Part shown: one piece after another, positions 3,910 through 49,267 of the stretch
Layout: every line of letters begins with the position of its first letter
How positions within the stretch are numbered: the stretch's first letter is position 1
Origin: a phage
Sequence record: PV419677.1
Length of the DNA stretch: 64,000 nt
Reading direction: 5' to 3' (one strand)
Translations under genes and position numbers: made by a program
Notes under the pieces: generated by a model
The model's database searches: none
The model's input: the letters and a program-made list of their open reading frames with translations, nothing else
What the model was told of the DNA's origin: nothing

Positions 3910-6900
3910 ATGGCCGATATTTTAAAACCAGCATTCAGAGCAACATCCGGTCTCGATGCGGCTGGTGAGAAAGTCATTAATGTCGCGAAAGCTGATTTCT
4001 CAGTTTTGTCAGACGGCGTTAACGTAGACTTCTTTATAGAAGAAAACACAATTCAACAATATGATGCAACACGCGGATATAAGAAAGATTTTGCAGTTAT
4101 CTATGATAACCGTATTTGGGTTTCCCAACGTGAAATCGCAGAACCAGCTGGCCCATTTGTTCAGCAATATTGGACCGCAACCCGTACTGACCCGAAATGG
4201 GAAACTGTTGCATCACCAACTCGTCAGCTTAGCTCCGGGGAATTTATCGCAGTCGACTCAGCTGCAAGCTTTACCACATTTACATTGCCTCCGAACCCGA
4301 CTGATGGTGATACCATCGTTATTAAAGATATCGGCGGTAATACCGGTTATAATGAAATTAAAATCCAGTCAAGCAACGTGCCTGGCCAAGGTAACCAAAA
4401 GATTGTTCGCTTTGGTAATCAGTATTCAGAAGTTTTAATTACCAAACCATTCTCTTATAACATGCTTATCTTTTCAAACCGCTTATGGCAATTTTGGGAA
4501 GCAGGTAACGAAGAACGTGGTATCAGAGTAGAACCGTCGACCGGACGTTTCCATGCACAAGCTGGCGACTTTATTATGCGTCGTTATACAACTGGTGCAC
4601 CGATTACTTTCATTCTTCCTAAGTATGCAAACCAGGGTGATATTGTCAAATCTGTTGATATCGATGGCATGGGGCCAACGTTCCACCTGATGGTTGAAAC
4701 CTTTGACACCAGTTCCAGTCTTGGTAAAGCTGGCCAGCATCAAATGGAATTCCGTACCACAGGTGATGGTTTCTTCGTTTATGATGCTGCCGAAAAACTC
4801 TGGCATGTTTGGGACGGTGATTTTAAAACTCGTCTTCGTGTTATTCGCGACAGCGTTAAACTTTTACCAAACGAAAGTGTCATTGTATTTGGCGAAGATA
4901 ACTCAACTCCGGCAACGATTAATATCGATTTACCAACGGATGTTTTGCAAGGCGATATTGTTAAGATTGCGCTGAACTATCTCCGTAAATCGCAGACTGT
5001 TAATATAAGAGCTGCTGTCGGCGATAAGATTGCAACTGACATTAAATTGCTGCAATTCCCTAAACGTTCCGAGTATCCACCAGATACAACTTGGGTGATG
5101 GTTGATTCATTGACCTTTAATGGCAACATCAGTTATACTCCGGTTATTGAATTATCATATGCAGAAGATGCAGTGTCTGGAACAAGTTATTGGGTTGTCG
5201 CTCAGAACGTCCCGACTGTCGAACGAGTTGACTCATTAAATGATTCCACGCGTACACGTCTTGGTGTTATTGCTCTGGCAAACCAGACTCAGGCAAACGT
5301 TGACCATGAAAATAACCCAGAGAAAGAACTCGCAATTACACCTCAGACTTTAGCCAACCGTGTTGCTAAAGAGAACCAACGAGGCATTGCCAGAATCGCA
5401 ACGACTGCCCAAGTAAATCAGAACAGTGATTTTGCATTTGTTGATGATGTAATTATTTCTCCGAAAAAACTCAATGAACGTACGGCAACAGAAACGAGAC
5501 GTGGGCTCGCAGAACTCGCCACACAGCAAGAAACCGATGCGGGTGTAGATGATACCACAATTATAACTCCAAAGAAACTGCAAGCTCGCCAGGGCTCAGA
5601 ATCGCTATCCGGTATTGTAACTTACGTTTCAACGACTGGTGCAACTCCTGCTGCTTCGCGTGAATTAAATGGTACAAACGTTTATAATAAAAATACGGTT
5701 AATCTGGTTGTTTCTCCGAAAGCTCTTGACCAGTACAAAGCTACTTACACCCAGCAAGGCGCGGTTATTCTTGCGGTTGAAAGTGAAGTAATCGCTGGTA
5801 CTTCTCAATCTGGCTGGGCAAACGCAGTCGTTACTCCAGAAATGTTGCATCGCAAAACTGCTCTTGATTCCCGTATCGGTTTAATCGAGATTGCTACTCA
5901 AGTTGAAACAGATGCAGGAACCGATTATACCAGAGCTGTGACTCCTAAAACGTTAAATGACCGTAAAGCATCAGAAACGTTAACCGGCATAGCCGAGATT
6001 GCTACGCAATCAGAATTTGATACTGGAACTGATGATACTCGTATCTCAACTCCATTAAAAATTAAAAATAGATTTAATAATACTGCTCGTACTTCTGTTA
6101 ATGCATTAAGTGGTTTAGTAGAAACAGGGACGCTCTGGGACCATTATAGCCTGAATATTCTTGAAGCAAATGAGACTCAGCGTGGCACAGCAAGATTAGC
6201 AACTCAGGGTGAAGTCAATACTGGCACTGACGATAAAACAATCGTTACTCCGCTTAAATTGATGTCGAAAAAAGCCACTGAAAACGCCGAAGGTATTGTT
6301 CGCATCGCGACAAACGCAGAAGCAACAGCAGGCACATCAAAAGTCTTGGCCATTAGTCCGTCTGCGCTGAAATATATTGCCCAAACGGAAACAACTTGGG
6401 AAGCATCTGAAACACTGCGTGGATTTGTTCGTTTATCTTCCGGTGCAGCTACTTCGGCCGCAACTACAACGACGGGCGCGGGATTTACATATGAAAATGG
6501 TGTGTATACCCCGGACCCAAGTAAACTGGTTAGCTATGCGAAATCTGGATATGCAGTTTCGCCTTACGAATTAAACCGCGTATTGCAAAACTTCTTACCG
6601 ATAAATGCGATGGCTGTTAATGCTGAAAAACTGGATAACCTCGATTCGACCCAGTTTATTCGTCGTGATATTGCTCAGACTGTTGAAGGTGTATTAACCC
6701 TTACTAAGCAGACAAATATCTCTGCTCCGGTTGTATCGACGAGCACTGCGGTGTTTACTGATGTAACGGCTGGTACTTCGACGTTCGGAACTGTGAATGT
6801 TGTTAATGGAACTAACAAGTGGAAAATCACTGCTCCTTCCGCCGGAACAACAATGACTATTGGCGATACGACTAACGTATTGACATTAAACACCGCCTCG

Positions 6901-7866
6901 GGTAATGTTGCTGTATTGAACAACCTCAGCGCCGGAAACGATGTTCAAGCCAAAAATAATTATGTTCTAAATGGTCGTACTATCGCAACTACGACGGGTG
7001 AAGTTTCTGGTGCAACTTTGTCTCTGGGTGATAACTCACAGAATTTAGTGCTCAAAACTCTTGATGCGGGTAATATCATAGCAAATGGTGGTGGTGCATT
7101 TAAAGTTCTGACCGAGAAAAACGCAGTAGAAATTGTTGATAGAAACTTTGTTAACCAGGCTGGTGATACAATGTCTGGTGTACTCCGTGTAAATGCTCCG
7201 GTCCGTGTATTTGGTACAAAACCGAGTCTTATTGCACAAGCTCCGACTGCTGATACTGTTGGTTTCTGGTCTGTCGATATCAATGATGAACCGACTTATA
7301 GTCAGTTCCCTGGCTATTGGACAATGAAGTTAAAACGTCAAGTAAACATTGATACGGTTCAAACTAAACCTGCTGGGGTAACTGATGAAGTTTGGAATGC
7401 TTCTGGTTGGTTAACTGAAAACGGAACTTTTGCCTCGCCCGCTATTCGTTATCGTACTGATGATGGTACACTCGGTGATGAAGTATTAGGTAGCTCCGGG
7501 CAGAAACTGCGTGGAACCTGGTTTGACTATTCAGTTCGTGACAAACAAATTAAATATCCTGGTACATTGACTCAGTTTGGTAATACGCTGGATTCGTGCT
7601 ATCAAGATTGGGTTTGTTATCCAACTGAATTGAACGGTGGTACTATTCGTTATACTCGTACGTGGCAGAAAAATAAATCTGCATGGACGACTTTCGCAAT
7701 GGTTTATACCGCGGATAACCCTCCGTCTGCAGAGGATGTTGGTGCATTACCAGCCGATAACACAACGATGGGGAACTTAACCATTCTTGATTGGTTGCGT
7801 ATCGGTAACGTGCGTATCATCCCAGACCCGACCACTAAATCCGTTAAGTTTGAATGGATTGAATAA
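3910..7866 (+). CDS. 34: long tail fibre proximal subunit gp34
   Basis: 1318 aa (T4 1289 aa); long collinear match to recalled gp34 incl. repeated ...RRGIARIATTAQ... motifs. Confidence 0.95.
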   Translation: MADILKPAFRATSGLDAAGEKVINVAKADFSVLSDGVNVDFFIEENTIQQYDATRGYKKDFAVIYDNRIWVSQREIAEPAGPFVQQYWTATRTDPKWETVASPTRQLSSGEFIAVDSAASFTTFTLPPNPTDGDTIVIKDIGGNTGYNEIKIQSSNVPGQGNQKIVRFGNQYSEVLITKPFSYNMLIFSNRLWQFWEAGNEERGIRVEPSTGRFHAQAGDFIMRRYTTGAPITFILPKYANQGDIVKSVDIDGMGPTFHLMVETFDTSSSLGKAGQHQMEFRTTGDGFFVYDAAEKLWHVWDGDFKTRLRVIRDSVKLLPNESVIVFGEDNSTPATINIDLPTDVLQGDIVKIALNYLRKSQTVNIRAAVGDKIATDIKLLQFPKRSEYPPDTTWVMVDSLTFNGNISYTPVIELSYAEDAVSGTSYWVVAQNVPTVERVDSLNDSTRTRLGVIALANQTQANVDHENNPEKELAITPQTLANRVAKENQRGIARIATTAQVNQNSDFAFVDDVIISPKKLNERTATETRRGLAELATQQETDAGVDDTTIITPKKLQARQGSESLSGIVTYVSTTGATPAASRELNGTNVYNKNTVNLVVSPKALDQYKATYTQQGAVILAVESEVIAGTSQSGWANAVVTPEMLHRKTALDSRIGLIEIATQVETDAGTDYTRAVTPKTLNDRKASETLTGIAEIATQSEFDTGTDDTRISTPLKIKNRFNNTARTSVNALSGLVETGTLWDHYSLNILEANETQRGTARLATQGEVNTGTDDKTIVTPLKLMSKKATENAEGIVRIATNAEATAGTSKVLAISPSALKYIAQTETTWEASETLRGFVRLSSGAATSAATTTTGAGFTYENGVYTPDPSKLVSYAKSGYAVSPYELNRVLQNFLPINAMAVNAEKLDNLDSTQFIRRDIAQTVEGVLTLTKQTNISAPVVSTSTAVFTDVTAGTSTFGTVNVVNGTNKWKITAPSAGTTMTIGDTTNVLTLNTASGNVAVLNNLSAGNDVQAKNNYVLNGRTIATTTGEVSGATLSLGDNSQNLVLKTLDAGNIIANGGGAFKVLTEKNAVEIVDRNFVNQAGDTMSGVLRVNAPVRVFGTKPSLIAQAPTADTVGFWSVDINDEPTYSQFPGYWTMKLKRQVNIDTVQTKPAGVTDEVWNASGWLTENGTFASPAIRYRTDDGTLGDEVLGSSGQKLRGTWFDYSVRDKQIKYPGTLTQFGNTLDSCYQDWVCYPTELNGGTIRYTRTWQKNKSAWTTFAMVYTADNPPSAEDVGALPADNTTMGNLTILDWLRIGNVRIIPDPTTKSVKFEWIE

Positions 7867-7874
7867 GAGGTAAT

Positions 7875-9005
7875 ATGGAAAAATTTATGGCAGAGTTTGG
7901 ACAAGGATACGTCCAAACGCCAGTTATATCAGAAAATAATGCCGTTAAATTTAAAATGAGTATAGCAGGGAGCTGTACTCTTTCCACGGTGAAATCGTAT
8001 ATCAAATTTCAGGATGAACGAATTGGACCAACTACTTTTGGTAATGGTCTGACTCTATTGGAAATTGATACAACTACGAATAAAATTGTTAACACGAAAA
8101 ACTATTCATTAACTAGCACGCATGATGCAATCAGTCAGGCATTAATCACCTTTGTGGAATCTGTTCCAGCCGGAAGATTGATTGCTTTTATTTCTTCAGG
8201 GAAACTAAACGCATCACAGACATTAATTGATTGGTTCCGTAAATGTGGTTCAAGAGCATTCCCGGAGAAATGGCTGATTGATAAAGTTGATACATCGTAC
8301 TCGGCTTTTTACATAACCGGCCGGAATGTAATTGTTTCGGAGCATGTTAAGTATAATGACGGGAAGTTAGTTGAGGATGTTTCGACCCCGCTTGAAGTCA
8401 TTTATGATACCTTTAGTGATATAGGAGCAACAGGCTATCCTGTACGCATAACGGAAGACGAGAGCACGTATTCATCAACAGGTGATGGAACATCAACCAC
8501 AATTAAAAGGTTCCCCACAGAGGACCTGGTGACTCCTATGGATACCTATAACCTTTTACCTTTGGATGTGCTTTACTTGAAGTTTCAGATGTCATTTGAC
8601 GCAGCACTGAAAGCCGCCGGAACTGTAAGGACTTCGGTTCGATTCTTTAAAAGCCCCAGCACTTCACCGATATCAAATACAAACATCGATATTGCAGCAA
8701 ACGTTCCAGCCGGGGCTTGGGCGAGTTTCGAAAGATATGTCGAGATTCCACCAGGAGCTGATGGTTTTACAGTAGTAACATCAAGAACTGTAGCTACTGG
8801 AACAGGGTCAATACGTAATATTGTTATTGGTGAGATAACCAGAGGCGACTCGGCATTCAAACCAGCTGAATTTGGTGTCAATGGCATAAGGATGTCATAT
8901 GCAAACGATGCAACAAATACAGGTAATACAATTGTAACATTCCCGGATGCACAAGCTCCGAGAGCCGGCAAGATATATGCAGCCGAACTACGAGAAAAAC
9001 AATAG
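7875..9005 (+). CDS. 35: long tail fibre hinge connector gp35
   Basis: 376 aa (T4 372 aa); position directly after 34. Confidence 0.85.
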   Translation: MEKFMAEFGQGYVQTPVISENNAVKFKMSIAGSCTLSTVKSYIKFQDERIGPTTFGNGLTLLEIDTTTNKIVNTKNYSLTSTHDAISQALITFVESVPAGRLIAFISSGKLNASQTLIDWFRKCGSRAFPEKWLIDKVDTSYSAFYITGRNVIVSEHVKYNDGKLVEDVSTPLEVIYDTFSDIGATGYPVRITEDESTYSSTGDGTSTTIKRFPTEDLVTPMDTYNLLPLDVLYLKFQMSFDAALKAAGTVRTSVRFFKSPSTSPISNTNIDIAANVPAGAWASFERYVEIPPGADGFTVVTSRTVATGTGSIRNIVIGEITRGDSAFKPAEFGVNGIRMSYANDATNTGNTIVTFPDAQAPRAGKIYAAELREKQ

Positions 9006-9027
9006 GACTCTTCGGAGTCCTTTTTTC
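9005..9027 (+). terminator. rho-independent terminator after gene 35
   Basis: GGACTC-TTCG-GAGTCC hairpin followed by TTTTTT. Confidence 0.6.
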
Positions 9028-9029
9028 GT

Positions 9030-9037
9030 TATAAATA
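9030..9037 (+). promoter_or_regulatory. late promoter (TATAAATA) for genes 36-37
   Basis: TATAAATA about 35 nt upstream of gp36 ATG. Confidence 0.6.
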
Positions 9038-9072
9038 CAAAATATCATATGCCGGTTGAAGAGGACTTATAA

Positions 9073-9720
9073 ATGGCAGATTTAAAACTAGGCTCAACAG
9101 CCGGGGGTTCGGTCCTCTGGCACCAGGGTAATTTCCCATTAACACCAGTCAGTAATGACTTATATTTCAAAACTTATAAAATTTATTCCGAATATAACAA
9201 GCCACAAGCAGTCGATAACGATTTTGTTTCTAAAGCTCTAGGTGGTAATTATAAAGCAAATGTGTATTTCGAACAAGGCCTGGCATTTAACGATTCAAAT
9301 GGTTACGGGATTAAGTTAGGAGCGAGAACAGGCGGTACACCATTTACAGCATCTTTCCGTATTAAAGGACCATTCGGATTTGAGACTGAAACAGGAACAC
9401 CGTTCGTTATTTTTGACCCTGACGCTACGACGGGAGCAAAACGTCTTACTGTTATGGGTGATACGTTAGCTCGACAAATTTATGATGAAACAGGTCGTGT
9501 ATTTTCTCCAGGGAACACTCCATCAAAAGCTCAAGTCGGACTTGGTAATGTAACCAACCAACAACAGGTGGAACTAAATAATAGTACATTACAAACAATG
9601 ACAGGTAACTTGTCAGCACCTAATTTCTTCTCTAGGAACCCAGCATCAGACCCGGCCCATGTGCCTCGTTTTGACCAAATCGTTCTTAAAGACTCCGTAC
9701 AAGATTTTGGATATTATTAA
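9073..9720 (+). CDS. 36: long tail fibre distal connector gp36
   Basis: 215 aa (T4 221 aa); synteny 35-36-37. Confidence 0.85.
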   Translation: MADLKLGSTAGGSVLWHQGNFPLTPVSNDLYFKTYKIYSEYNKPQAVDNDFVSKALGGNYKANVYFEQGLAFNDSNGYGIKLGARTGGTPFTASFRIKGPFGFETETGTPFVIFDPDATTGAKRLTVMGDTLARQIYDETGRVFSPGNTPSKAQVGLGNVTNQQQVELNNSTLQTMTGNLSAPNFFSRNPASDPAHVPRFDQIVLKDSVQDFGYY

Positions 9721-9728
9721 GAGGCATT

Positions 9729-12700
9729 ATGGCTACTTTAAAACAAATACAATTTAAAAGAAGTAAGGTTGCCGGCGTTCGTCCGGCGCCAACAGTTCTT
9801 GCTGAAGGTGAACTGGCTATCAACCTGAAAGACCGCTTACTTTTTACTAAAGATGACACCGGCGCCATCATCGACCTTGGTTTTGCCAAAGGTGGTAATA
9901 TCGATGGTAATGTTATTCATAACGGTAATTACAATCAAACTGGTGATTATACCCTGAATGGTACTTTTACCCAAACTGGTGATTTTAATTTAACCGGCAT
10001 TGCTCGTGTAACTCGCGATATTATTGCCGCGGGTCAGATAATGACTGAAGGTGGTGAACTTATTTCTAAGAGTGCATCGACTTCGCATCTTCGTTTTTTT
10101 GATGGTGCATCACGCGAACGCGGTATTATCTTTTCTCCTAACAATGCGGGTTTGACAACTCAGGTAGTTAATATACGAGTGCAAGATTATGCCGCTGGTA
10201 GCGAAAGCACTTACGCGTTTTCAGGCAATGGTCAATTTACTTCACCTGAAGTATCAGCATGGAAATCTATTTCATCCCCACAAATTCTGACTGATAAAGT
10301 TATTACAAACGGGAAGAAGGCCGGCGATTATGATATCTATTCATTAGCAAATAATAATTCTAACACAGATAAAAATAATTTACGTGTTGTGCGTACTGAT
10401 GCAGCCGCCGCAATGCTCCATGAAATTTGTGAAAATAACGGTATCAGTTGGTATTCTGGTTCAACCCCTACTGATTATATGTTATCTTTTGCTTATTCAG
10501 GTGGTTTTCAAGCTGGGCATTCGATTGCAGTGGGTATGGAATCAGGGCCTATGACATATTCGGCCTTAGGTAAGGGTTCTATTGCTCTTGGTGATAATGA
10601 CACCGGGTTAAAATGGCATCAGGATGGATATTTCTTTAGCGTTAATAACGGCACAAAAACTTTCCTTTCTGGGCCGGCAGAAACCACCAGTCTTAGAAAA
10701 ATGGTTATGGGTTATTCTGTAAACGGTACCGATTTAACCACTCCTCCGTCAGAAAACTATGCTTTGGCTACTGTTGTTACTTACCATGATAATAACGCGT
10801 ATGGTGACGGTCAAACTCTTTTAGGTTATTATCAAGGCGGTAAATATCATCACTATTTCCGTGGTAAAGGTACAACAAACATTAACACCGCAGGTGGACT
10901 ATTAGTTACTCCAGGCAATATTGACGTGATTGGCGGTTTAATTAATATCAACGGTCGTAGTAATGCTTCAACCCTATTGTTTAGTAGCTATACGTCAGGT
11001 CAAAGCTCTGTCGATAATATGAATATACGTGTTTGGGGCGATACTTTTACTACTGTAGGTGGTACTCGCAAAAACGTAATGGAAATTTCTGACGCAACTA
11101 GTTGGATGAGCTATATTCAACGAACAACTGCAGGTAAAGTCGAATCTGTTATAAATGGCACCCAGATTGTTAATGAAAACTTGACAGTAGTAAAAAATGC
11201 TACATTTGATGGTACAATCAGCGCAGCCGGCGAAATCGCGACAAATGCTGTAAATGGTCTTCGTATTTGGAACAATGATTACGGTGCCATTTTTAGACGT
11301 TCAGAAGGAAGTCTTCATATTATTCCTACAGCATTTGGTGAAGGACAGAATGGTGATATCGGTCCACTTCGCCCGTTTAGTATGGCTTTAGATACCGGTA
11401 AAGTTACTATTCCAGATTTACAATCAAGTTACAATACGTTCGCAGCAAACGGCTATATTAAATTTACTGGACATGGTGCAGGTGCAGGCGGTTACGATAT
11501 TCAATATGCACAAGCAGCTCCTGTTTTCCAGGAAATCGATGATGATGCTGTAAGTAAATATTATCCTATTGTTAAACAGAAGTTTTTAAACAGTAAAGCT
11601 GTTTGGTCTTTAGGTACTGAAATTAATTCGGGAACATTTGTTTTACACCATATCAAAGAAGATGGTTCACAAGGCCATACATCAAGATTTAACGCTGATG
11701 GTACAGTTAACTTTCCGGATAACGTTCTGGTCGGCGGTGATATTAACACGAAAGGCGTGTTGACTTTTGACGCCGGACGTTTAGGATCACAAGATTATTT
11801 TAAATTTAACCATTTGGGTGATAGTAATAATGCTCGTGATAACATCATCCAGTTAGAAGATAGTCAAGGCGCTCATTTTTCCACTGAACGTACTTTAGCG
11901 ACAGGTGCAATTAAAACTCGTTTCTTTGGCGAAATATCCACTGATGGTACATTATACCTAAATCAGATGAATAATAGCTCTGAACGATTCTCTATTAATA
12001 ATTGGGGAAATTCAGAAGTTGGTCGCGCGGCAGTGATGGAAGTCAAAGATTCCAAAGGTTATCACTTCTATACGGAACGCAGGACAGATAACAGTTTGAA
12101 TTTTGATGTTGCTGGCAATTTTACTGCGCATGGACCTTCCGGAATAACCATCAAAAACTCTGCTGGCGCTCGCCACATCTGGTTTAAAGATAATAGCGAA
12201 TCGGAAAAGGCTGTTATCTGGGCTACAGATGAGGGTATTTTACATATACGAAATAATTATGGGGGTTCATTTAGTCATCACTTCCAGGGTGCAATGATTC
12301 TAGCGGGAGAGAGTGTTCCATATAATGGTGAATACGCTCTTATCCGTGGTAATATTTCCGGTGGTGCATGGTCAGACTGGCGTAACCGTCCGGCTGGATT
12401 GTTGGTAGACTGTCCGGACTCACGAAACCAAGCATATAACATTTGGAAAGCTACTCATTGGGGCGAACAGCACCTTGCGGCGATGGGTATTCATGCTGGC
12501 GGTGGTAATCCTCATGTTATATTGCATGTGGGTGGGAATGATTTTGGATTTGGATATAACGGTGATTTTGCTGCTAGTGCTGCTGTATATTGTAACGACG
12601 TTTATATTCGTTCTGACCGTCGTCTGAAAATTAATGTTGAAGACTACGAAGAGAATGCGGTGGATAAGGTAAATAAACTCAAAGTTAAAACCTATGATAA

Positions 12701-12965
12701 AGTTAAATCTCTTTCTGACCGCGAAGTTATCGGCCATGAGATTGGTATTATCGCACAGGATTTGCAAGAAGTATTACCGGAAGCTGTTAGCACTTCTAGT
12801 GTCGGATCTCAGGATAACCCAGAAGAAATTTTAACAATTTCAAACTCTGCTGTGAACGCGCTTTTAATTAAGGCCATTCAGGAAATGAGCGAAGAAATTA
12901 AAGAATTGAAAACGCCTCTCTTTACTAAAATTGCTCGCAAAATTAGTAAATATTTTAAATTCTAA
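9729..12965 (+). CDS. 37: long tail fibre distal subunit gp37 with C-terminal intramolecular chaperone domain
   Basis: 1078 aa; last ~115 aa carry SDRRLK...[17 protein letters not shown] motif typical of self-cleaving chaperone (peptidase S74-like) domains, as in T2-type gp37. Confidence 0.9.
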
Positions 12966-13000
12966 CAACAAGGGGGAAATGCCCCCTTTGGAGTATAATT

Positions 13001-13801
13001 ATGGCAGTAGTTGGAGTTCCTGGCTGGATTGGAAGTTCAGCCGTAAATGAAACAGGACAACGATGGATGAGTCAAGCGGCTGGTCAATTAAGATTAGGTG
13101 TTCCTTGCTGGATGAGTCAATTTGCAGGTCGCTCAAGAGAAATTATTCACACGCTTGGAGCAGACCACAACTTTAACGGGCAATGGTTCCGCGACCGTTG
13201 CTTTGAAGCCGGTAGTGCGCCTATTGTTTTTAATCTTACAGGTACATTAGTATCTTATACCCGTGATGTTCCATTGTTCTTTATGTATGGGGATACTCCA
13301 AACGAATATGTTCAATTGAATATTGGTGGTGGGGTTCATATATGGGGCCGAGGTGGTCAAGGTGGATGGACCCACTCGGGTGGCGATGGCAACGGGCAAT
13401 GGGGTGGAACTTGTATTGTAAATGATATTGGCGGTCGTTTAAGAATTAATAATGGTGGGGTTATCTGCGGCGGTGGCGGCGGCGGTGGCGGCATCGCTTA
13501 TCGTCCTCACTCTGGTGCAAACTGGCAAGATATTGGTGGCGGTGGAGGAAGACCATTTGGCCTAGGCGGCGGTGGTGGATATTCAGGTGGCGGAGCTTCT
13601 TTGGATGGTCCAGGAGGTGGTTATCAATACGGAAATGCCCACTCTGGTCATGGTGGGGATGCCGGCGGAGCAGGTCAGAATGCATGGTCTGACGGTGGTA
13701 AAGTTCTAAAAGTCGGCGCTGGAGGCGGCGCAGGAGCTGCTGTTGCTGGAAGTTCTCCTACTTGGCATAATACAGGTGTTATCTACGGTTCCTGGCTATA
13801 G
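13001..13801 (+). CDS. 38: T2-type tail fibre adhesin gp38 (Gly-rich motifs flanking variable segments)
   Basis: 266 aa; conserved N-terminus, then multiple poly-Gly blocks (GGGGGGGG, GGGGG) separated by short variable segments. Confidence 0.85.
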
Positions 13802-13812
13802 TGCATAAGCTC

Positions 13813-13820
13813 TATAAATA
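13813..13820 (+). promoter_or_regulatory. late promoter (TATAAATA) for gene t
   Basis: TATAAATA then AAGGAGA Shine-Dalgarno upstream of t. Confidence 0.6.
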
Positions 13821-13838
13821 TCTTTAAAGGAGAAAAGT

Positions 13839-14492
13839 ATGGAACCAAAAGTAGGAATATCAATACCCGACCTACTTTTTGGACTTCTTGATAGAATTTT
13901 TAAAGATAATGCGACCGGGAAAGTTGTTTTTTCCCGGGTACTAGTTATTGTTCTATTATTTTTAATGGCGGTAATCTGGTATAAAGGTGATGCACTTTTA
14001 GATGCGTACAGGGATGCTTCATATGCCTCATACACTGAAATGATAAGGCAAGACCAGGATAACAGATTTAAAATTGCAGCTATCGAGCAAATCCAGATAG
14101 TCCACTCGTCAAGTGGGGCAGACTTTACAGCAATATATTCTTTTAGACCAACTAACCTTAACTACTTTGTGGATATGGTGGGTTACGAGGGGATATTGCC
14201 TGATACAGTCGACGAAAAAAATTTAGGTGGGTTTCCAATAGATAAGACTTCAGCGGAATATTTGGCGGGGGTTAATGGTAATTATTTTGAATCCAGCGTG
14301 GAATCTGTATTCTTACCAACAAAGAAAAAAAGCAGCTTCACATATATGTTCAGCTGCCCATTCTTTAATTTGGAAAACGTTTATGCAGGCACAGTCTCAC
14401 TGTACTGGTATAAGCAAAAACCCGACCTTGGTTTTGATAGGCTTTCTTCTATGTGTGGACAAGCAGGTCGTACGCTCGGGCGTACACGTTAG
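13839..14492 (+). CDS. t: holin T
   Basis: 217 aa (T4 218 aa); LDRIFKDNATGKV..., YMFSCPFFNLENVYAGT match recalled T4 holin. Confidence 0.9.
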   Translation: MEPKVGISIPDLLFGLLDRIFKDNATGKVVFSRVLVIVLLFLMAVIWYKGDALLDAYRDASYASYTEMIRQDQDNRFKIAAIEQIQIVHSSSGADFTAIYSFRPTNLNYFVDMVGYEGILPDTVDEKNLGGFPIDKTSAEYLAGVNGNYFESSVESVFLPTKKKSSFTYMFSCPFFNLENVYAGTVSLYWYKQKPDLGFDRLSSMCGQAGRTLGRTR

Positions 14493-14764
14493 AATCCGGA
14501 GGTATACATCATAAGATAACGGTGTATATCTTCGAATCCTTCGTTAAATTGTTCAATGATTTGTTCAATTTCATCTTCAGATAAACTTTTAAACAATTTG
14601 TTAAACGATACATTGTTTAACTCATTCCCATTCTCATTTCTCAATCCCAACTCATTCAAAAACGCGATAAACACATCGCGCTTCATCGTAATATCTTCCC
14701 GGTCGGTTTTAATCAAAATTGAAGTTATAGTAACAATTTCAGAAACGATTTCAAATTTAGTCAT
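14489..14764 (-). CDS. asiA: anti-sigma70 factor AsiA
   Basis: 91 aa; EIVTITSILIK...FIAFLNE...EFNEGFE..YRYL matches recalled T4 AsiA (90 aa). Confidence 0.9.
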   Translation of the reverse strand: MTKFEIVSEIVTITSILIKTDREDITMKRDVFIAFLNELGLRNENGNELNNVSFNKLFKSLSEDEIEQIIEQFNEGFEDIHRYLMMYTSGF

Positions 14765-14822
14765 TTTAATTTACTCAAGTATTCAATAAGACATTCAATT
14801 ATTCAGTAAGGGTATTATACTA

Positions 14823-14987
14823 TTATTCCTCTGGGTTGTACACATGATTTTCCATCTGTACAACATATTCCTGATACATCTGTTCAACTGGTTCCTGGAA
14901 CTTAAAATCAGCTCCAAGGAATTCCTCAAAGCAAGCCTGTTCGTGCGTACGTTGACCGGTGATGGTGTTCTCTAAGTTATGACTCAT
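14823..14987 (-). CDS. hypothetical small protein (54 aa)
   Basis: ATG with AGGGA Shine-Dalgarno; below the 60-aa ORF-track cutoff; between asiA and arn. Confidence 0.35.
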   Translation of the reverse strand: MSHNLENTITGQRTHEQACFEEFLGADFKFQEPVEQMYQEYVVQMENHVYNPEE

Positions 14988-15076
14988 AATGATTCCCTTT
15001 GTGCTTCTGCTTACGTTTGGACTGCATTTTGGTTTTCTTCTTGTCCTTATGGACAGACGCCTTATTGAAATCGTGC

Positions 15077-15355
15077 TTAGCTACCAGATTGTTCATGCAA
15101 TTTCCTTAATTGATATTCAAGAGAACTGATAATTTCTTTATTAGTTGCAATATACATATCACGTAGGAAGGGTTTCAGACCTTCTCTAACTCTATACGTG
15201 TTATCACTAATATCCTTTATATATTCATGGTCTAAAGCATCCCAAGCCGGCTGGTTAACATAAGTTCCCCAGTTATCTTCCATCATAGTGTTCAGACGTT
15301 TGATATGATTGATATGGGTTTCGATTGCATCAATCTGGAGTTGTTTAAGGTTCAT
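15077..15355 (-). CDS. arn: possible anti-restriction nuclease Arn
   Basis: 92 aa, same length and genomic slot as T4 Arn; assignment by synteny only. Confidence 0.45.
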   Translation of the reverse strand: MNLKQLQIDAIETHINHIKRLNTMMEDNWGTYVNQPAWDALDHEYIKDISDNTYRVREGLKPFLRDMYIATNKEIISSLEYQLRKLHEQSGS

Positions 15356-15966
15356 TAATAAAGGTCCTCTGAATAAAGTTCTTTTTCACTACCGCCACGT
15401 TCAATACGCACCTGATTTGCATAAGTCGCAATAATCATTGCTTCTTCGCGGGTCCAGTAATTGCTGTACTGGTCAATGAATCCTTGATTATCACCACAAA
15501 CATGGTCTGACACAAGTTTATCACTTACTTGGTCAAGCACTTCTGCCATATCCTTGGAATAATGTCTGGCACCAGGAATAACCAGAGTCCCACCATCTTT
15601 TAACTTAAATCGGTTGGCGGCACATACAATCCGTCGCTGATATTTTTCATTGTTATTCCAATGCGCAATCTGCCAACAGATTTCCGGGACTTCTTCCAGA
15701 ATATCTTTTTCATCGCATGTGTATCCATGTGCTTTAAATTTTTCAGCGAGGCTTTTGGGGGTTTCACGCGATTCTGGTGCTGGTAACATTTCTAAACGAG
15801 TGATAAACGGATTCATTTCACAATTACCTTCTTCATTATATTCGGTGTAATCACCGTATGCATGTAATTTAGCAGCGAGACTTTCAGGAGTCTCCCGAGA
15901 AAGAGCTTTATCTAACAAGGCCATACGGTCTTTAAAGGATAATGCTTTACCTTTTAATGGATTCAT
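15355..15966 (-). CDS. hypothetical protein with internal tandem repeat
   Basis: 203 aa; two N-terminal repeats ([18 protein letters not shown] / [18 protein letters not shown]); C-terminal IVCAAN...[12 protein letters not shown] motif of unknown family. Confidence 0.6.
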
Positions 15967-16310
15967 TTGAAAATCACCTTATAACCGTTATCTTTAGCGA
16001 ATTCTTGAATTTTAGCGGCGGTTTCAATTAAATCACCTTTATAATAGGATGATAATTTAATATCAACTGTTTTGCCTTCGCCATACGAAGTTATATTCAC
16101 TTTTTCCGTAAAAATAAGCTCAAGAAATCGCAATAGCTGCATACCAAATTCAAGAGTAACATTATCAATCTGGAGGTTAAGTTGATAAGTTTTCTTAATA
16201 CCATTCACCAGGGCACAGCGCTCATCCCAATCATTACGTTGTTCTTCAATCAATTTAAGGGAATGACCTTCGCCATCCCAATTTAGTTCCATAGGAATCA
16301 TTTGAACCAA
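15963..16310 (-). CDS. hypothetical protein
   Basis: 115 aa; stop/start overlap with neighbours. Confidence 0.5.
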
Positions 16311-16630
16311 CCTTTAACACGTTGCCACAGACTTTTCTGTTGAGCTTTATTAACACCAATTGAGCGAATAACTGGTTGTGATTCCAGGTATTCTTTATAG
16401 TCAGCTTTATAGACTTCATATGCTGCTGGAACAAAGGCACCAATCGCCGCCATGAAGTTCTTGCGAGCACCAAATGGAGCTACTGCATCATCCTGGCGAT
16501 GGATAAGATACTGACCAGCTTTGACCTTGACAATAGTCCCAAGGTAAGCGCCATGATACCAAACATCCCAACCCTCTTGAGTAGGTTCTACGCAAGCACG
16601 CAATTCATTAACAATATTCAGCTTATTCAT
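16298..16630 (-). CDS. hypothetical protein
   Basis: 110 aa; in arn-motA interval. Confidence 0.5.
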   Translation of the reverse strand: MNKLNIVNELRACVEPTQEGWDVWYHGAYLGTIVKVKAGQYLIHRQDDAVAPFGARKNFMAAIGAFVPAAYEVYKADYKEYLESQPVIRSIGVNKAQQKSLWQRVKGWFK

Positions 16631-16637
16631 AATTTCC

Positions 16638-17246
16638 TCACTTTAAGATGTTAATAACATGTTGAATGTTTTCAGTTGACATATGATTGTCAATGTAGGT
16701 ATTCAATCCACCTACTTTAACGCTAAATCCCACGTCTGTAAACTGTTTTACTATCTTTTGTTCAGTATTATACGCATGCACACGAATCTGACCATCACGA
16801 CGTACATCAATCTGTTTTAATGTCTTGATACGCTTGAACTTCACAATCAGATTGCTGCGGTCTTCTGAAATGCTCTTAAAGTCAATACCAATAGACAACA
16901 ATTGCTCTTTGATATATTCTGCAGTCGCTTCCATTTCATCAGTAACGCCGCGTTTTGTTCTTGTCTTCTTCACTTCCAGAAGGTCAGGATTATTTTCATT
17001 TGCCCAAAGTTCAGCTGCGTCCAGAATAAGGTCAACACCTTTTTCCGTAACCATCAAACCATCACCAGAAGCTTCAACATAGTTGTTATTCAACAATGTC
17101 TGTACGCTATCAATTGATGTGTTCTGCTGGTCTAAAACAACCTCAGGACGCACGAAGTTGTTTTTATATACAAACACCAGAGCATTAACATCAGTCTCAT
17201 GTAGAGCGTTCTGGGAGCATTTAACGATATAATTTAGCTTGTTCAT
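16638..17246 (-). CDS. motA: middle transcription activator MotA
   Basis: 202 aa (T4 211 aa); position between arn cluster and gene 52; partial similarity to recalled MotA. Confidence 0.65.
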   Translation of the reverse strand: MNKLNYIVKCSQNALHETDVNALVFVYKNNFVRPEVVLDQQNTSIDSVQTLLNNNYVEASGDGLMVTEKGVDLILDAAELWANENNPDLLEVKKTRTKRGVTDEMEATAEYIKEQLLSIGIDFKSISEDRSNLIVKFKRIKTLKQIDVRRDGQIRVHAYNTEQKIVKQFTDVGFSVKVGGLNTYIDNHMSTENIQHVINILK

Positions 17247-48864: not shown

Positions 48865-49095
48865 CAATTTTGTTCAGTTGAAGTCGTTAATTTCAACCCG
48901 GAATTATATCCAGCTGCATGTTGCCATGCAGAGCAGACTATATCATCATCTTTCGATGCCATGCGCTTCCAGCCACTTGGCTGTACTCCTTTCGGATAGT
49001 CGTTGCACGTTCCTATAATAGGCTTCGCTCAGGATTGTCTCATAGAGATGTCCCCTGAATTCACATGGTTTAAAGTGCGCCGGAATACTTGGTTA
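48865..49095 (-). mobile_element. candidate ORF-less group I self-splicing intron in gene 43
   Basis: 231 nt between ...CYGA/L and GNIW...; P1 (exon GUGCGU : intron GCGCAC, U.G at splice site), P7 (GACUA / UAGUC within GAUAUAGUC), GNRA hairpin, terminal G; splicing restores frame. Confidence 0.55.
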
Positions 49096-49267
49096 ACGCA
49101 CCATAACAACTGTTGATAAGCAATTTGCGGTTAATCTGTGCAGTATTTGCCGCAATTTCTGCCATTTGCGAATTATGCAAATGACTTTCCAAATCCGCCC
49201 TTGATAATGTTTTTAAATATGCAATTTGCGAATCATCAAAATCTATATTATAATCAATATTCATCAT
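49096..49267 (-). CDS. 43: DNA polymerase gp43, subunit 43B exon 1 (motif B region)
   Basis: MMNIDYN...NRKLLINSCYGA matches T4 gp43 around KILINSLYGALG; ATG overlaps stop of the homing endonuclease gene. Confidence 0.7.

Follow-up and report, generated by a model that had tools for sequence, protein, structure and literature searches.

Genes 37 and 38 of phage PV419677.1 encode a T-even-type tail-fibre tip with a predicted self-cleaving gp37 and a putative OmpA-binding adhesin

In the phage of sequence record PV419677.1, genes 37 and 38 very probably specify two parts of a long tail fibre of T-even type, namely its distal half and the adhesin at its tip; gp37 would be self-cleaved, gp38 would bind OmpA, and the pair forms a recombination cassette. 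The window, i.e. the whole stretch of phage DNA that was analysed, spans 64,000 nucleotides, and the features of the locus are collected in Table 1. The module is an ordinary T-even receptor-binding tip, the design of which is already well described; only the alleles of gp37 and gp38 are new, with neither exact sequence being present in a collection of 15 billion proteins that was searched by exact look-up. The practical value of this assessment lies in annotation and host-range prediction, and the current view of T-even tail fibres is unchanged by it.

Based on what is known of homologous fibres, gp37 would be synthesized as a 1078-aa precursor, within which the S74 chaperone (aa 962-1078) would put three chains in register and drive the folding of a trimeric beta-helical tip. 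Ser962, activated by Lys967, would then attack the R961-S962 bond, whereupon the chaperone would leave and a flat tip ending in DVYIR would be exposed. A single gp38 monomer would dock there, with Trp9, Trp22 and Trp37 of the three-helix N-domain entering three pockets related by symmetry, while the hypervariable loops of its C-terminal polyglycine-II sandwich would project outward from the particle and bind the receptor.

Table 1. Features of the gene 37-gene 38 locus (nucleotide positions in the window)
Feature	Position	Strand	Basis
Gene 37, long tail fibre distal subunit precursor	9729-12965	+	ORF; 1078 aa including chaperone domain
Predicted mature gp37, aa 1-961, ending in CNDVYIR	9729-12611	+	Alignment with S16 gp37 cleavage site
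Intramolecular chaperone domain at the C-terminus (117 aa, aa 962-1078), predicted to leave once the trimer has formed	12612-12962	+	Pfam PF13884, E=1.3e-14
SDRRLK: predicted nucleophile Ser962 (12612-12614), predicted general-base Lys967 (12627-12629), predicted scissile bond R961-S962	12612-12629	+	S74 model start, motif conservation, S16 alignment
Gene 37-gene 38 spacer, 35 nt, with GC hairpin (about 12971-12987) and GGAG ribosome-binding site	12966-13000	+	Sequence
Gene 38, T2/S16-type tail-fibre adhesin, 266 aa	13001-13801	+	Pfam Gp38_N and GP38; PHROG 2056; PDB matches
gp38 N-terminal attachment domain, aa 1-45, Trp prongs W9, W22 and W37, T6/RB32 subtype	13001-13135	+	Pfam Gp38_N, aa 1-42
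gp38 conserved central segment, aa 46-108 (beta-helix in S16)	13136-13324	+	Aligned S16 and PP01 sequences
gp38 specificity domain, aa 109-266, Gly-rich motifs and hypervariable loops, putative OmpA 'type 1' class	13325-13798	+	Gly blocks, identity to adhesins
Late promoter TATAAATA, preceding holin t; 3' edge of module, return to backbone	13813-13820	+	Sequence
Holin t	13839-14492		Pfam Phage_holin_T

The identity of gp38 is evident from several kinds of comparison. The protein scores 214 bits (E=2.6e-63) against GP38 and 72 bits against Gp38_N, the two adhesin profiles (PF05268 and PF21721) having cut-offs of 25 bits each, and it matches PHROG 2056, 'tail fiber protein; host specificity' (E=7e-107). 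Among solved structures, it matches 9v85 (E=8.6e-71) and 6f45_D (E=3.8e-52), the alignment with S16 gp38 being end to end and that with the PP01 receptor-binding domain starting at residue 38. W9, W22 and W37 each have an aligned Trp counterpart in S16 (the PP01 construct lacks the N-domain), and the N-domain is 100 % identical to those of RB32, LQ5, IME540 and FL33 and 97.8 % identical to that of T6. Further along, eight Gly-rich blocks, including a G8 run at aa 157-164, alternate with variable segments and are conserved across the 13 adhesins aligned, such that Gly makes up 39 % of aa 110-266 vs 12 % of aa 1-109. As is usual for adhesins of this kind, gene 38 directly follows, on the same strand, a gene 37 whose product terminates in an S74 domain. 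Thus, the view of gp38 as a T2/S16-type adhesin, which the preliminary description had taken from its N-terminus and its Gly-rich motifs bracketing variable segments, is borne out. The gp38 of LQ5 is 98.9 % identical.

The S16 gp37-gp38 tip (PDB 6F45; Dunne et al. 2018) shares with the locus the two-gene layout, an S74 chaperone with an SDRR(I/L)K site, three Trp prongs, a central beta-helix, a polyglycine sandwich and a GSWL C-terminus. The Trp-prong docking, the S16 domain layout and the polyglycine (PGII) sandwich have been described in the CASP13 paper. Given the end-to-end alignment with 6f45_D and that with 9v85_A from residue 38 on, the gp38 specificity domain is predicted to be a polyglycine-II sandwich, with one monomer per trimeric tip. 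However, S16 gp38 is only about 48-50 % identical, the S16 gp37 tip is divergent upstream of the cleavage site, and S16 binds OmpC, with its hypervariable loops differing in both sequence and length.

The receptor of gp38 is most likely the Escherichia coli outer-membrane protein OmpA, possibly with a contribution from LPS. Within the specificity domain, gp38 is 98.7 % identical to the adhesin of LQ5, 98.1 % to that of LHE83, 86 % to that of RB32 and 84-85 % to those of AV119 and FL08, but only 44-52 % identical to the adhesins of T6 (which uses Tsx), T2 (FadL), FL33 (OmpF) and S16/PP01 (OmpC); since LHE83 binds OmpA and the 84-86 % matches also belong to OmpA phages, OmpA is predicted. The alignment of variable segments, T2 and S16 included, that the preliminary description had suggested as a route to the receptor therefore places gp38 in the OmpA class. 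More specifically, gp38 clusters with the FL08 and AV119 adhesins, which are OmpA-dependent and classed as OmpA type 1 (Lutz et al. 2025), and the type-1 contact motif R-V-H-S-G-A occurs in it as RPHSGA. In the case of LHE83, a frameshift in ompA makes the host resistant, and adsorption changes when ompA is deleted, complemented or overexpressed. Gene 38 rather than gene 37 is the primary determinant of host range in this phage, and if the receptor is OmpA, resistance would probably arise through loss of ompA or variation in its loops.

There is a small chance that, with the same architecture, gp38 relies primarily on a receptor other than OmpA, or on more than OmpA alone, the options being OmpA together with an LPS core sugar or a shift to another porin. 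RB32 requires both OmpA and LPS, and LHE83 still shows ~50 % adsorption to BL21 lacking ompA, implying that adhesins of that class have a second receptor. Moreover, a single substitution in gp38, Q206L, can switch an adhesin from OmpF to OmpW (bioRxiv 10.64898/2026.04.02.716166), the one-residue switch having been reported for RB51/RB68. In this regard, gp38 carries two private substitutions, P188L and Q217H, the first within the RPFG-x-GGGGG framework and the second beside a receptor loop, namely at the base of the counterpart of PP01 loop D. However, all hypervariable segments match in length, and almost match in sequence, their counterparts in four phages whose dependence on OmpA has been demonstrated, and P188L is probably neutral, given that it occupies a Gly-rich framework position and that Leu is the native residue there in the FL33 and PP01 adhesins. 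It is quite improbable that P188L and Q217H together move or broaden receptor use beyond plain OmpA, whether toward another OmpA loop variant, an extra receptor or another porin.

Turning to gp37, aa 1-1073 match PHROG 1699, 'long tail fiber distal subunit' (E=0), and a Gp34_trimer domain lies at aa 447-551. The last 117 aa of this distal fibre subunit are an S74 domain, with the Pfam profile Peptidase_S74 (PF13884; cut-off, 22 bits) matching at 54.6 bits over aa 962-1020 and beginning exactly at Ser962 (codon, TCT). The domain therefore has Ser as its first residue and Lys five residues on, as is typical of the S74 motif; Ser and Lys have catalytic roles in endoNF and MyRF. Across all 12 of the T-even gp37 tails aligned, S-D-x-R-x-K and G-[ILV]-[IV]-A-Q are invariant, while DVYIR is identical in seven and conservatively varied in the others. 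In a phmmer search, the domain matched 6f45_A, the S16 gp37 construct (E=7.9e-10), with the site covered (S16 side, iycrdlnvsSDRRIK), and gave weaker matches to the tail-fibre chain 8jov_1 and to MyRF 7dc3, in the latter case with the Lys aligned. The motif DVYIR/SDRRLK lines up with the S16 cleavage site DLNVS/SDRRIKK; according to PMC7917993 (citing Dunne 2018), S16 gp37 autocleaves between S and SDRRIKK, freeing 113 residues and exposing the surface on which gp38 docks. Autoproteolytic processing of gp37 has been reported for the homologues S16, T2 and T6. By homology to these three, gp37 is predicted to cleave itself into a 961-aa mature fibre and a freed 117-aa chaperone, and the mature protein would form the trimeric tip that serves as the docking base for gp38. 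The assignment of the gp37 tail to the S74 intramolecular chaperones in the preliminary description is thus upheld by the profile match and by the aligned S962/K967 motif, and both of the sequence strings that it had quoted for the gp37 end occur in the 1078-aa ORF; however, since SDRRLK starts at aa 962, the start of 12600 given there falls slightly upstream of the predicted cleavage site.

It is very improbable that the S74-like tail is instead a degenerate, uncleaved remnant that stays on the fibre, with gp38 binding elsewhere or acting in assembly only, inasmuch as both residues of the Ser/Lys dyad and the GxIAQ core are preserved, the profile score, covering 57 of the 58 model positions, exceeds the family cut-off more than twofold, and the domain, which differs from that of RB32 by a handful of substitutions (judged by eye in the alignment), is of the same subtype as that of T6, whose gp37 is reportedly processed. 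Even less credible, almost to the point of being negligible, is a gp38 that acts as a T4-like assembly chaperone outside the virion; it shares gene number and position with T4 gp38 but no similarity (BLASTP E=0.89), it matches adhesin families and two solved adhesin structures strongly, antiserum against LHE83 GP213, which is 95 % identical to it, blocks adsorption, and its gp37 partner is without Pfam matches to Collar and Phage_fiber, such that a T4-type role is already refuted at the level of sequence.

The contrast with T4 that had been drawn beforehand therefore holds: T4 gp37 has its own receptor-binding tip (Collar, Phage_fiber) and no S74 domain, and T4 gp38 is an unrelated chaperone, although the order of the locus (34-35-36-37-38-t) and a Gp34_trimer-like domain in the gp37 shaft are common to both phages. 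T2 has the same Pfam architecture (Gp34_trimer plus S74 in gp37, Gp38_N plus GP38 in gp38), but its gp37 is 1341 aa long, its gp38 is 67 %, 35 % and 44 % identical over the three segments, and it binds FadL. Outside the T-even fibres, endosialidases, T5 pb1 and MyRF resemble the gp37 tail in their membership of the S74 family, in the position of the domain C-terminal to a trimeric fibre and in S-D-x-R-x-K; unlike in these proteins, domain release from gp37 would also create a docking site for a separate adhesin.

Judged by nucleotide identities along the window, the gp37-gp38 module is a recombinant cassette that replaces the matching part of a Gaprivervirus backbone. The UPEC07-type backbone, at 94-98 % identity, ends at about nt 9900 and returns at about nt 13900 (95-98 %), and between these points the best-matching source changes several times. 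A poorly matching stretch of gp37, at 10900-11350, was considered as unique DNA and rejected as such, because AV111 and TH41 reach 89-90 % identity over it; it is therefore a further mosaic patch. Positions 12250-13150 are 93-98 % identical to RB32 (Tequatrovirus), and at the protein level the gp37 chaperone domain and gp38 N-domain of RB32 are essentially identical to those encoded here, whereas its specificity domain has about 20 substitutions and ends in PRV. T6 has the same attachment subtype, but its specificity domain is only 49 % identical. Based on such comparisons, the attachment end, comprising the gp37 tip, the chaperone domain and the gp38 N-domain, is assigned to the T6/RB32 subtype and not to that of T2 itself. 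The converse applies to LHE83 (Dhakavirus), whose GP213 differs from gp38 at four positions over aa 46-266 (98 % identity) and has the same loops and the GSWL end, whereas its N-domain is only 80 % identical and the LHE83 gp37 tip and chaperone are of another subtype (SDIRCK). Since LHE83 is alike in the specificity end and unlike in the attachment end, the two ends have separate histories. For engineering, the edges of the cassette, at about nt 9900, at about nt 13150 inside gene 38 and at about nt 13850, mark points at which tips could be swapped.

With regard to expression, the T4-type late promoter TATAAATA occurs within the locus only at 9030 and 13813; none was found in the spacer between genes 37 and 38, and gene 38 is therefore probably co-transcribed with genes 36 and 37. 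The GC hairpin in the spacer was considered as a regulatory element and rejected, as its fold (-14.8 kcal/mol) is no better than those of shuffled sequences (z=-1.5, not significant), and terminator-like calls were solely on the opposite strand. Antisense ORFs in genes 37 and 38 (e.g. 12420-12767 and 13461-13685, minus strand) are likewise unsupported, and are taken as by-products of Gly-codon-rich sequence. The richness of gp38 in Gly also accounts for the local base composition at nt 13250-13749 (GC content, 0.53; GC skew, +0.36).

The distal end of the long tail fibre in the window consists of a distal subunit (gp37), whose C terminus is a Peptidase_S74 (S74) intramolecular chaperone, and a Gly-rich tip adhesin (gp38). 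The strings quoted from the gp37 end in the preliminary description are present, and the start given there, 12600, is essentially that of the chaperone domain, since the SDRRLK motif starts with aa 962 (nt 12612). Its S74 assignment is borne out by Pfam Peptidase_S74 ('chaperone of endosialidase'), which matches aa 962-1020 (54.6 bits, cut-off 22; E=1.3e-14) with model position 1 on Ser962. Among PDB sequences the tail has a single strong match, the gp37 construct from S16 in entry 6F45 (E=3e-11 and 8e-10), in an alignment that crosses the site, where S16 reads ...IYCRDLNVS-SDRRIKKDIKAF...; two weaker hits are a further tail-fibre chain, 8jov_1 (...SDERLK...), and 7dc3, the autoprocessing domain of MyRF, in which the Lys lines up. 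PMC7917993, citing Dunne et al. 2018, reports that S16 gp37 autocleaves after trimerisation and loses its final 113 residues, the cut falling between the paired serines of DLNVS^SDRRIKK; processing has also been reported for T2 and T6 gp37 (Trojet et al.). Among 12 aligned T-even gp37 tails (window, RB32, IME540, LQ5, FL33, T6, T2, LHE83, UPEC07, FL08, AV119 and S16), S-D-x-R-x-K and G-[ILV]-[IV]-A-Q are unchanged in all, and the strand directly preceding the site shows conservative changes only (seven tails have DVYIR, the others NVYIR, DVYVR or DLNVS). Based on the S74 start, the S16 alignment and these invariant motifs, we infer that gp37 is cleaved in this phage, the predicted site lying between R961 and S962, which would yield a mature protein of 961 aa and a released domain of 117 aa. 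Ser962 is the predicted nucleophile and Lys967 the predicted base, an assignment that follows the dyad established for the S74 domains of endosialidase and MyRF. Further up the shaft, aa 447-551 form a Gp34_trimer-like domain (PF21446), which is over the cut-off in T2 gp37 and slightly under it in T4 gp37 (25.5 vs 27 bits), suggesting a module common to the proximal and distal half-fibres.

Features of the tail-fibre region, with the best-matching genomes along 7000-15000
Feature	Position	Strand	Detail
Late-promoter box TATAAATA	3872	+	before g34
g34	3910-7866	+	
g35	7875-9005	+	
Late-promoter box TATAAATA	9030	+	before g36
g36	9073-9720	+	
g37	9729-12965	+	1078 aa; distal fibre subunit (Pfam, PHROGs)
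g38	13001-13801	+	266 aa; 'tail fibre adhesin Gp38' (Pfam, PHROGs)
Late-promoter box TATAAATA	13813	+	before t
holin t	13839-14492	+	T holin (Pfam, PHROGs)
asiA	14489-14764	-	by synteny
motA	16638-17246	-	by synteny
gp38 Gly block	aa 109-111		GGG
gp38 Gly block	aa 116-122		GRGGQGG
gp38 Gly block	aa 127-136		10 residues
gp38 Gly block	aa 157-164		G8
gp38 Gly block	aa 179-198		20 residues
gp38 Gly block	aa 203-207		GPGGG
gp38 Gly block	aa 216-225		10 residues
gp38 Gly block	aa 239-245		GAGGGAG
Through first ~60 aa of gp37	up to ~9900		UPEC07, 92-98%
Identity segment	9850-10900		LQ5, IME540, about 90%
Identity segment	10900-11350		each of the seven relatives compared, about 70%
Identity segment (database search)	10750-11550		AV111, TH41, 89-90%
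Identity segment	11650-12250		IME540, LQ5, 97-99%
gp37 tip, chaperone, gp38 N-domain	12250-13150		RB32, IME540, 93-98%
gp38 body	13150-13800		LQ5, LHE83, 93-97%
Identity segment	from ~13900		UPEC07, 95-98%

As had been proposed, gp38 is a T2/S16-type adhesin. Pfam Gp38_N covers aa 1-42 (72 bits) and GP38 aa 47-266 (214 bits), while phmmer aligns S16 gp38 (6f45_D, E=3.8e-52) end to end and the receptor-binding domain of PP01 gp38 (9v85, E=8.6e-71) from residue 38. W9, W22 and W37 line up with the three S16 Trp residues that, in the crystal structure, sit in three symmetry-related pockets of the gp37 tip. The C-terminal domain, 39% Gly, holds eight Gly-rich blocks, on account of which nt 13250-13749 have a GC content of 0.53 and a GC skew of +0.36. 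In an alignment of 13 sequences, variation is concentrated in the segments between the blocks, which are themselves conserved. Trojet 2011 described this layout as Gly-rich motifs (GRM) alternating with hypervariable segments (HVS), and Dunne 2018 as a polyglycine-II sandwich. T4 is different: its gp38 (183 aa) has no similarity to the window protein (BLASTP E=0.89) and no Pfam match, and its gp37 carries Collar and Phage_fiber domains without S74, whereas the T2 pair has exactly the window architecture. The original observation is confirmed, and these controls support its interpretation in full, including the stated difference from T4.

Alignment of the gp38 variable segments with known-receptor adhesins, including T2 and S16, a check the preliminary description had suggested, predicts OmpA. 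Over the specificity domain (aa 109-266), identity is 98.7% to LQ5, 98.1% to LHE83 GP213 (OmpA), 86.1% to RB32 (OmpA plus LPS; PMC3157838), and 84.8% and 84.2% to AV119 and FL08 (OmpA 'type 1'; PMC12032242), falling to 52% for FL33 (OmpF), 50% for PP01 (OmpC), 49% for T6 (Tsx), 48% for S16 (OmpC) and 44% for T2 (FadL). For LHE83, a resistant mutant carries an ompA frameshift, adsorption is altered by ompA deletion, complementation and overexpression, and anti-GP213 serum blocks adsorption (PMC10987938); OmpA dependence of AV119 and FL08 was established with deletion mutants (PMC12032242). With the specificity domain alone as tblastn query, the closest matches again include LQ5, PSD2002, LHE83, E33, AV119 and FL08, and the type-1 contact stretch R165-VHSGA (Lutz et al.) is R168-PHSGA in the window, identical to RB32 and LQ5. 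Together, these similarities make OmpA the most likely receptor, with good confidence. As caveats, about 50% of LHE83 adsorption remains on BL21 without OmpA (PMC10987938), RB32 requires LPS too (PMC3157838), a single HVS substitution (Q206L) can switch a receptor from OmpF to OmpW, and two substitutions in the window gp38, P188L and Q217H, occur in none of the seven relatives compared. L188, within a framework motif, is native in the FL33 and PP01 adhesins, and H217 aligns immediately after loop D of PP01, which contains Tyr209, a residue that OmpC binding requires.

The module is mosaic. The rest of the window is ~97.5% identical to Gaprivervirus genomes (e.g. UPEC07, TH55 and TH22), but sliding-window identity over 7000-15000 brackets the gp37 body and gp38 by abrupt loss and regain against UPEC07 at ~9900 and ~13850, between which UPEC07 is just 64-80% identical or unalignable. 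The best donor, including IME540 (filed under Dhakavirus), changes along the segment, with a switch at ~13150 inside the conserved part of g38. Across phages, gp37 chaperone subtype co-varies with gp38 N-domain subtype, one pairing comprising the window, RB32, T6, FL33, IME540 and LQ5, a second UPEC07, FL08 and AV119, and a third LHE83, and the specificity domain assorts independently of these pairings. Such lock-and-key modularity, with GRM-mediated exchange, is already known at this locus. Neither exact protein was found in a 15-billion-protein collection, and for the module as a whole no DNA match exceeds 88-89% identity. At least 806 phage records contain gp38-type adhesins. The module adds a new allele and a new mosaic to a system that is already thoroughly characterised; its useful outputs are a predicted cleavage site, OmpA as the predicted receptor, and the boundaries of the cassette.

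These genes lie in a T-even-type long-tail-fibre operon, every gene on the plus strand. Because no T4-type late promoter was found between g37 and g38, g38 is probably co-transcribed with g36-g37. Late-promoter boxes number seven in the window vs 4.5 +/- 2.1 expected from shuffles, so only their positions carry meaning. The 35-nt g37-g38 spacer contains a GC-rich hairpin, AAGGGGG-aaatg-CCCCCTT (12971-12987), whose stability is not significantly above shuffles (z=-1.5) and which a terminator scan flagged on the minus strand only. In gp35, aa 57-128 match Pfam ILEI (PF15711, interleukin-like EMT inducer/FAM3 fold), a surprising label for a phage tail-fibre hinge protein, at 30.2 bits, barely over the cut-off of 27 (E=6.6e-7). 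Downstream of t, minus-strand ORF positions (14489-17246) match asiA, arn-region genes and motA of collinear records (UPEC07, RB32, LHE83 and T4), names given by synteny alone; DNA there is 95-98% identical to UPEC07 up to nt 14949, the extent searched. No tRNA genes were detected across the 64-kb window (1-64000). An Rfam group I catalytic intron (RF00028) lies at 48914-49127 on the minus strand (81.4 bits, gathering score 50; E=3.9e-19) and presumably belongs with the td, nrdB or nrdD-type introns of T-even phages.
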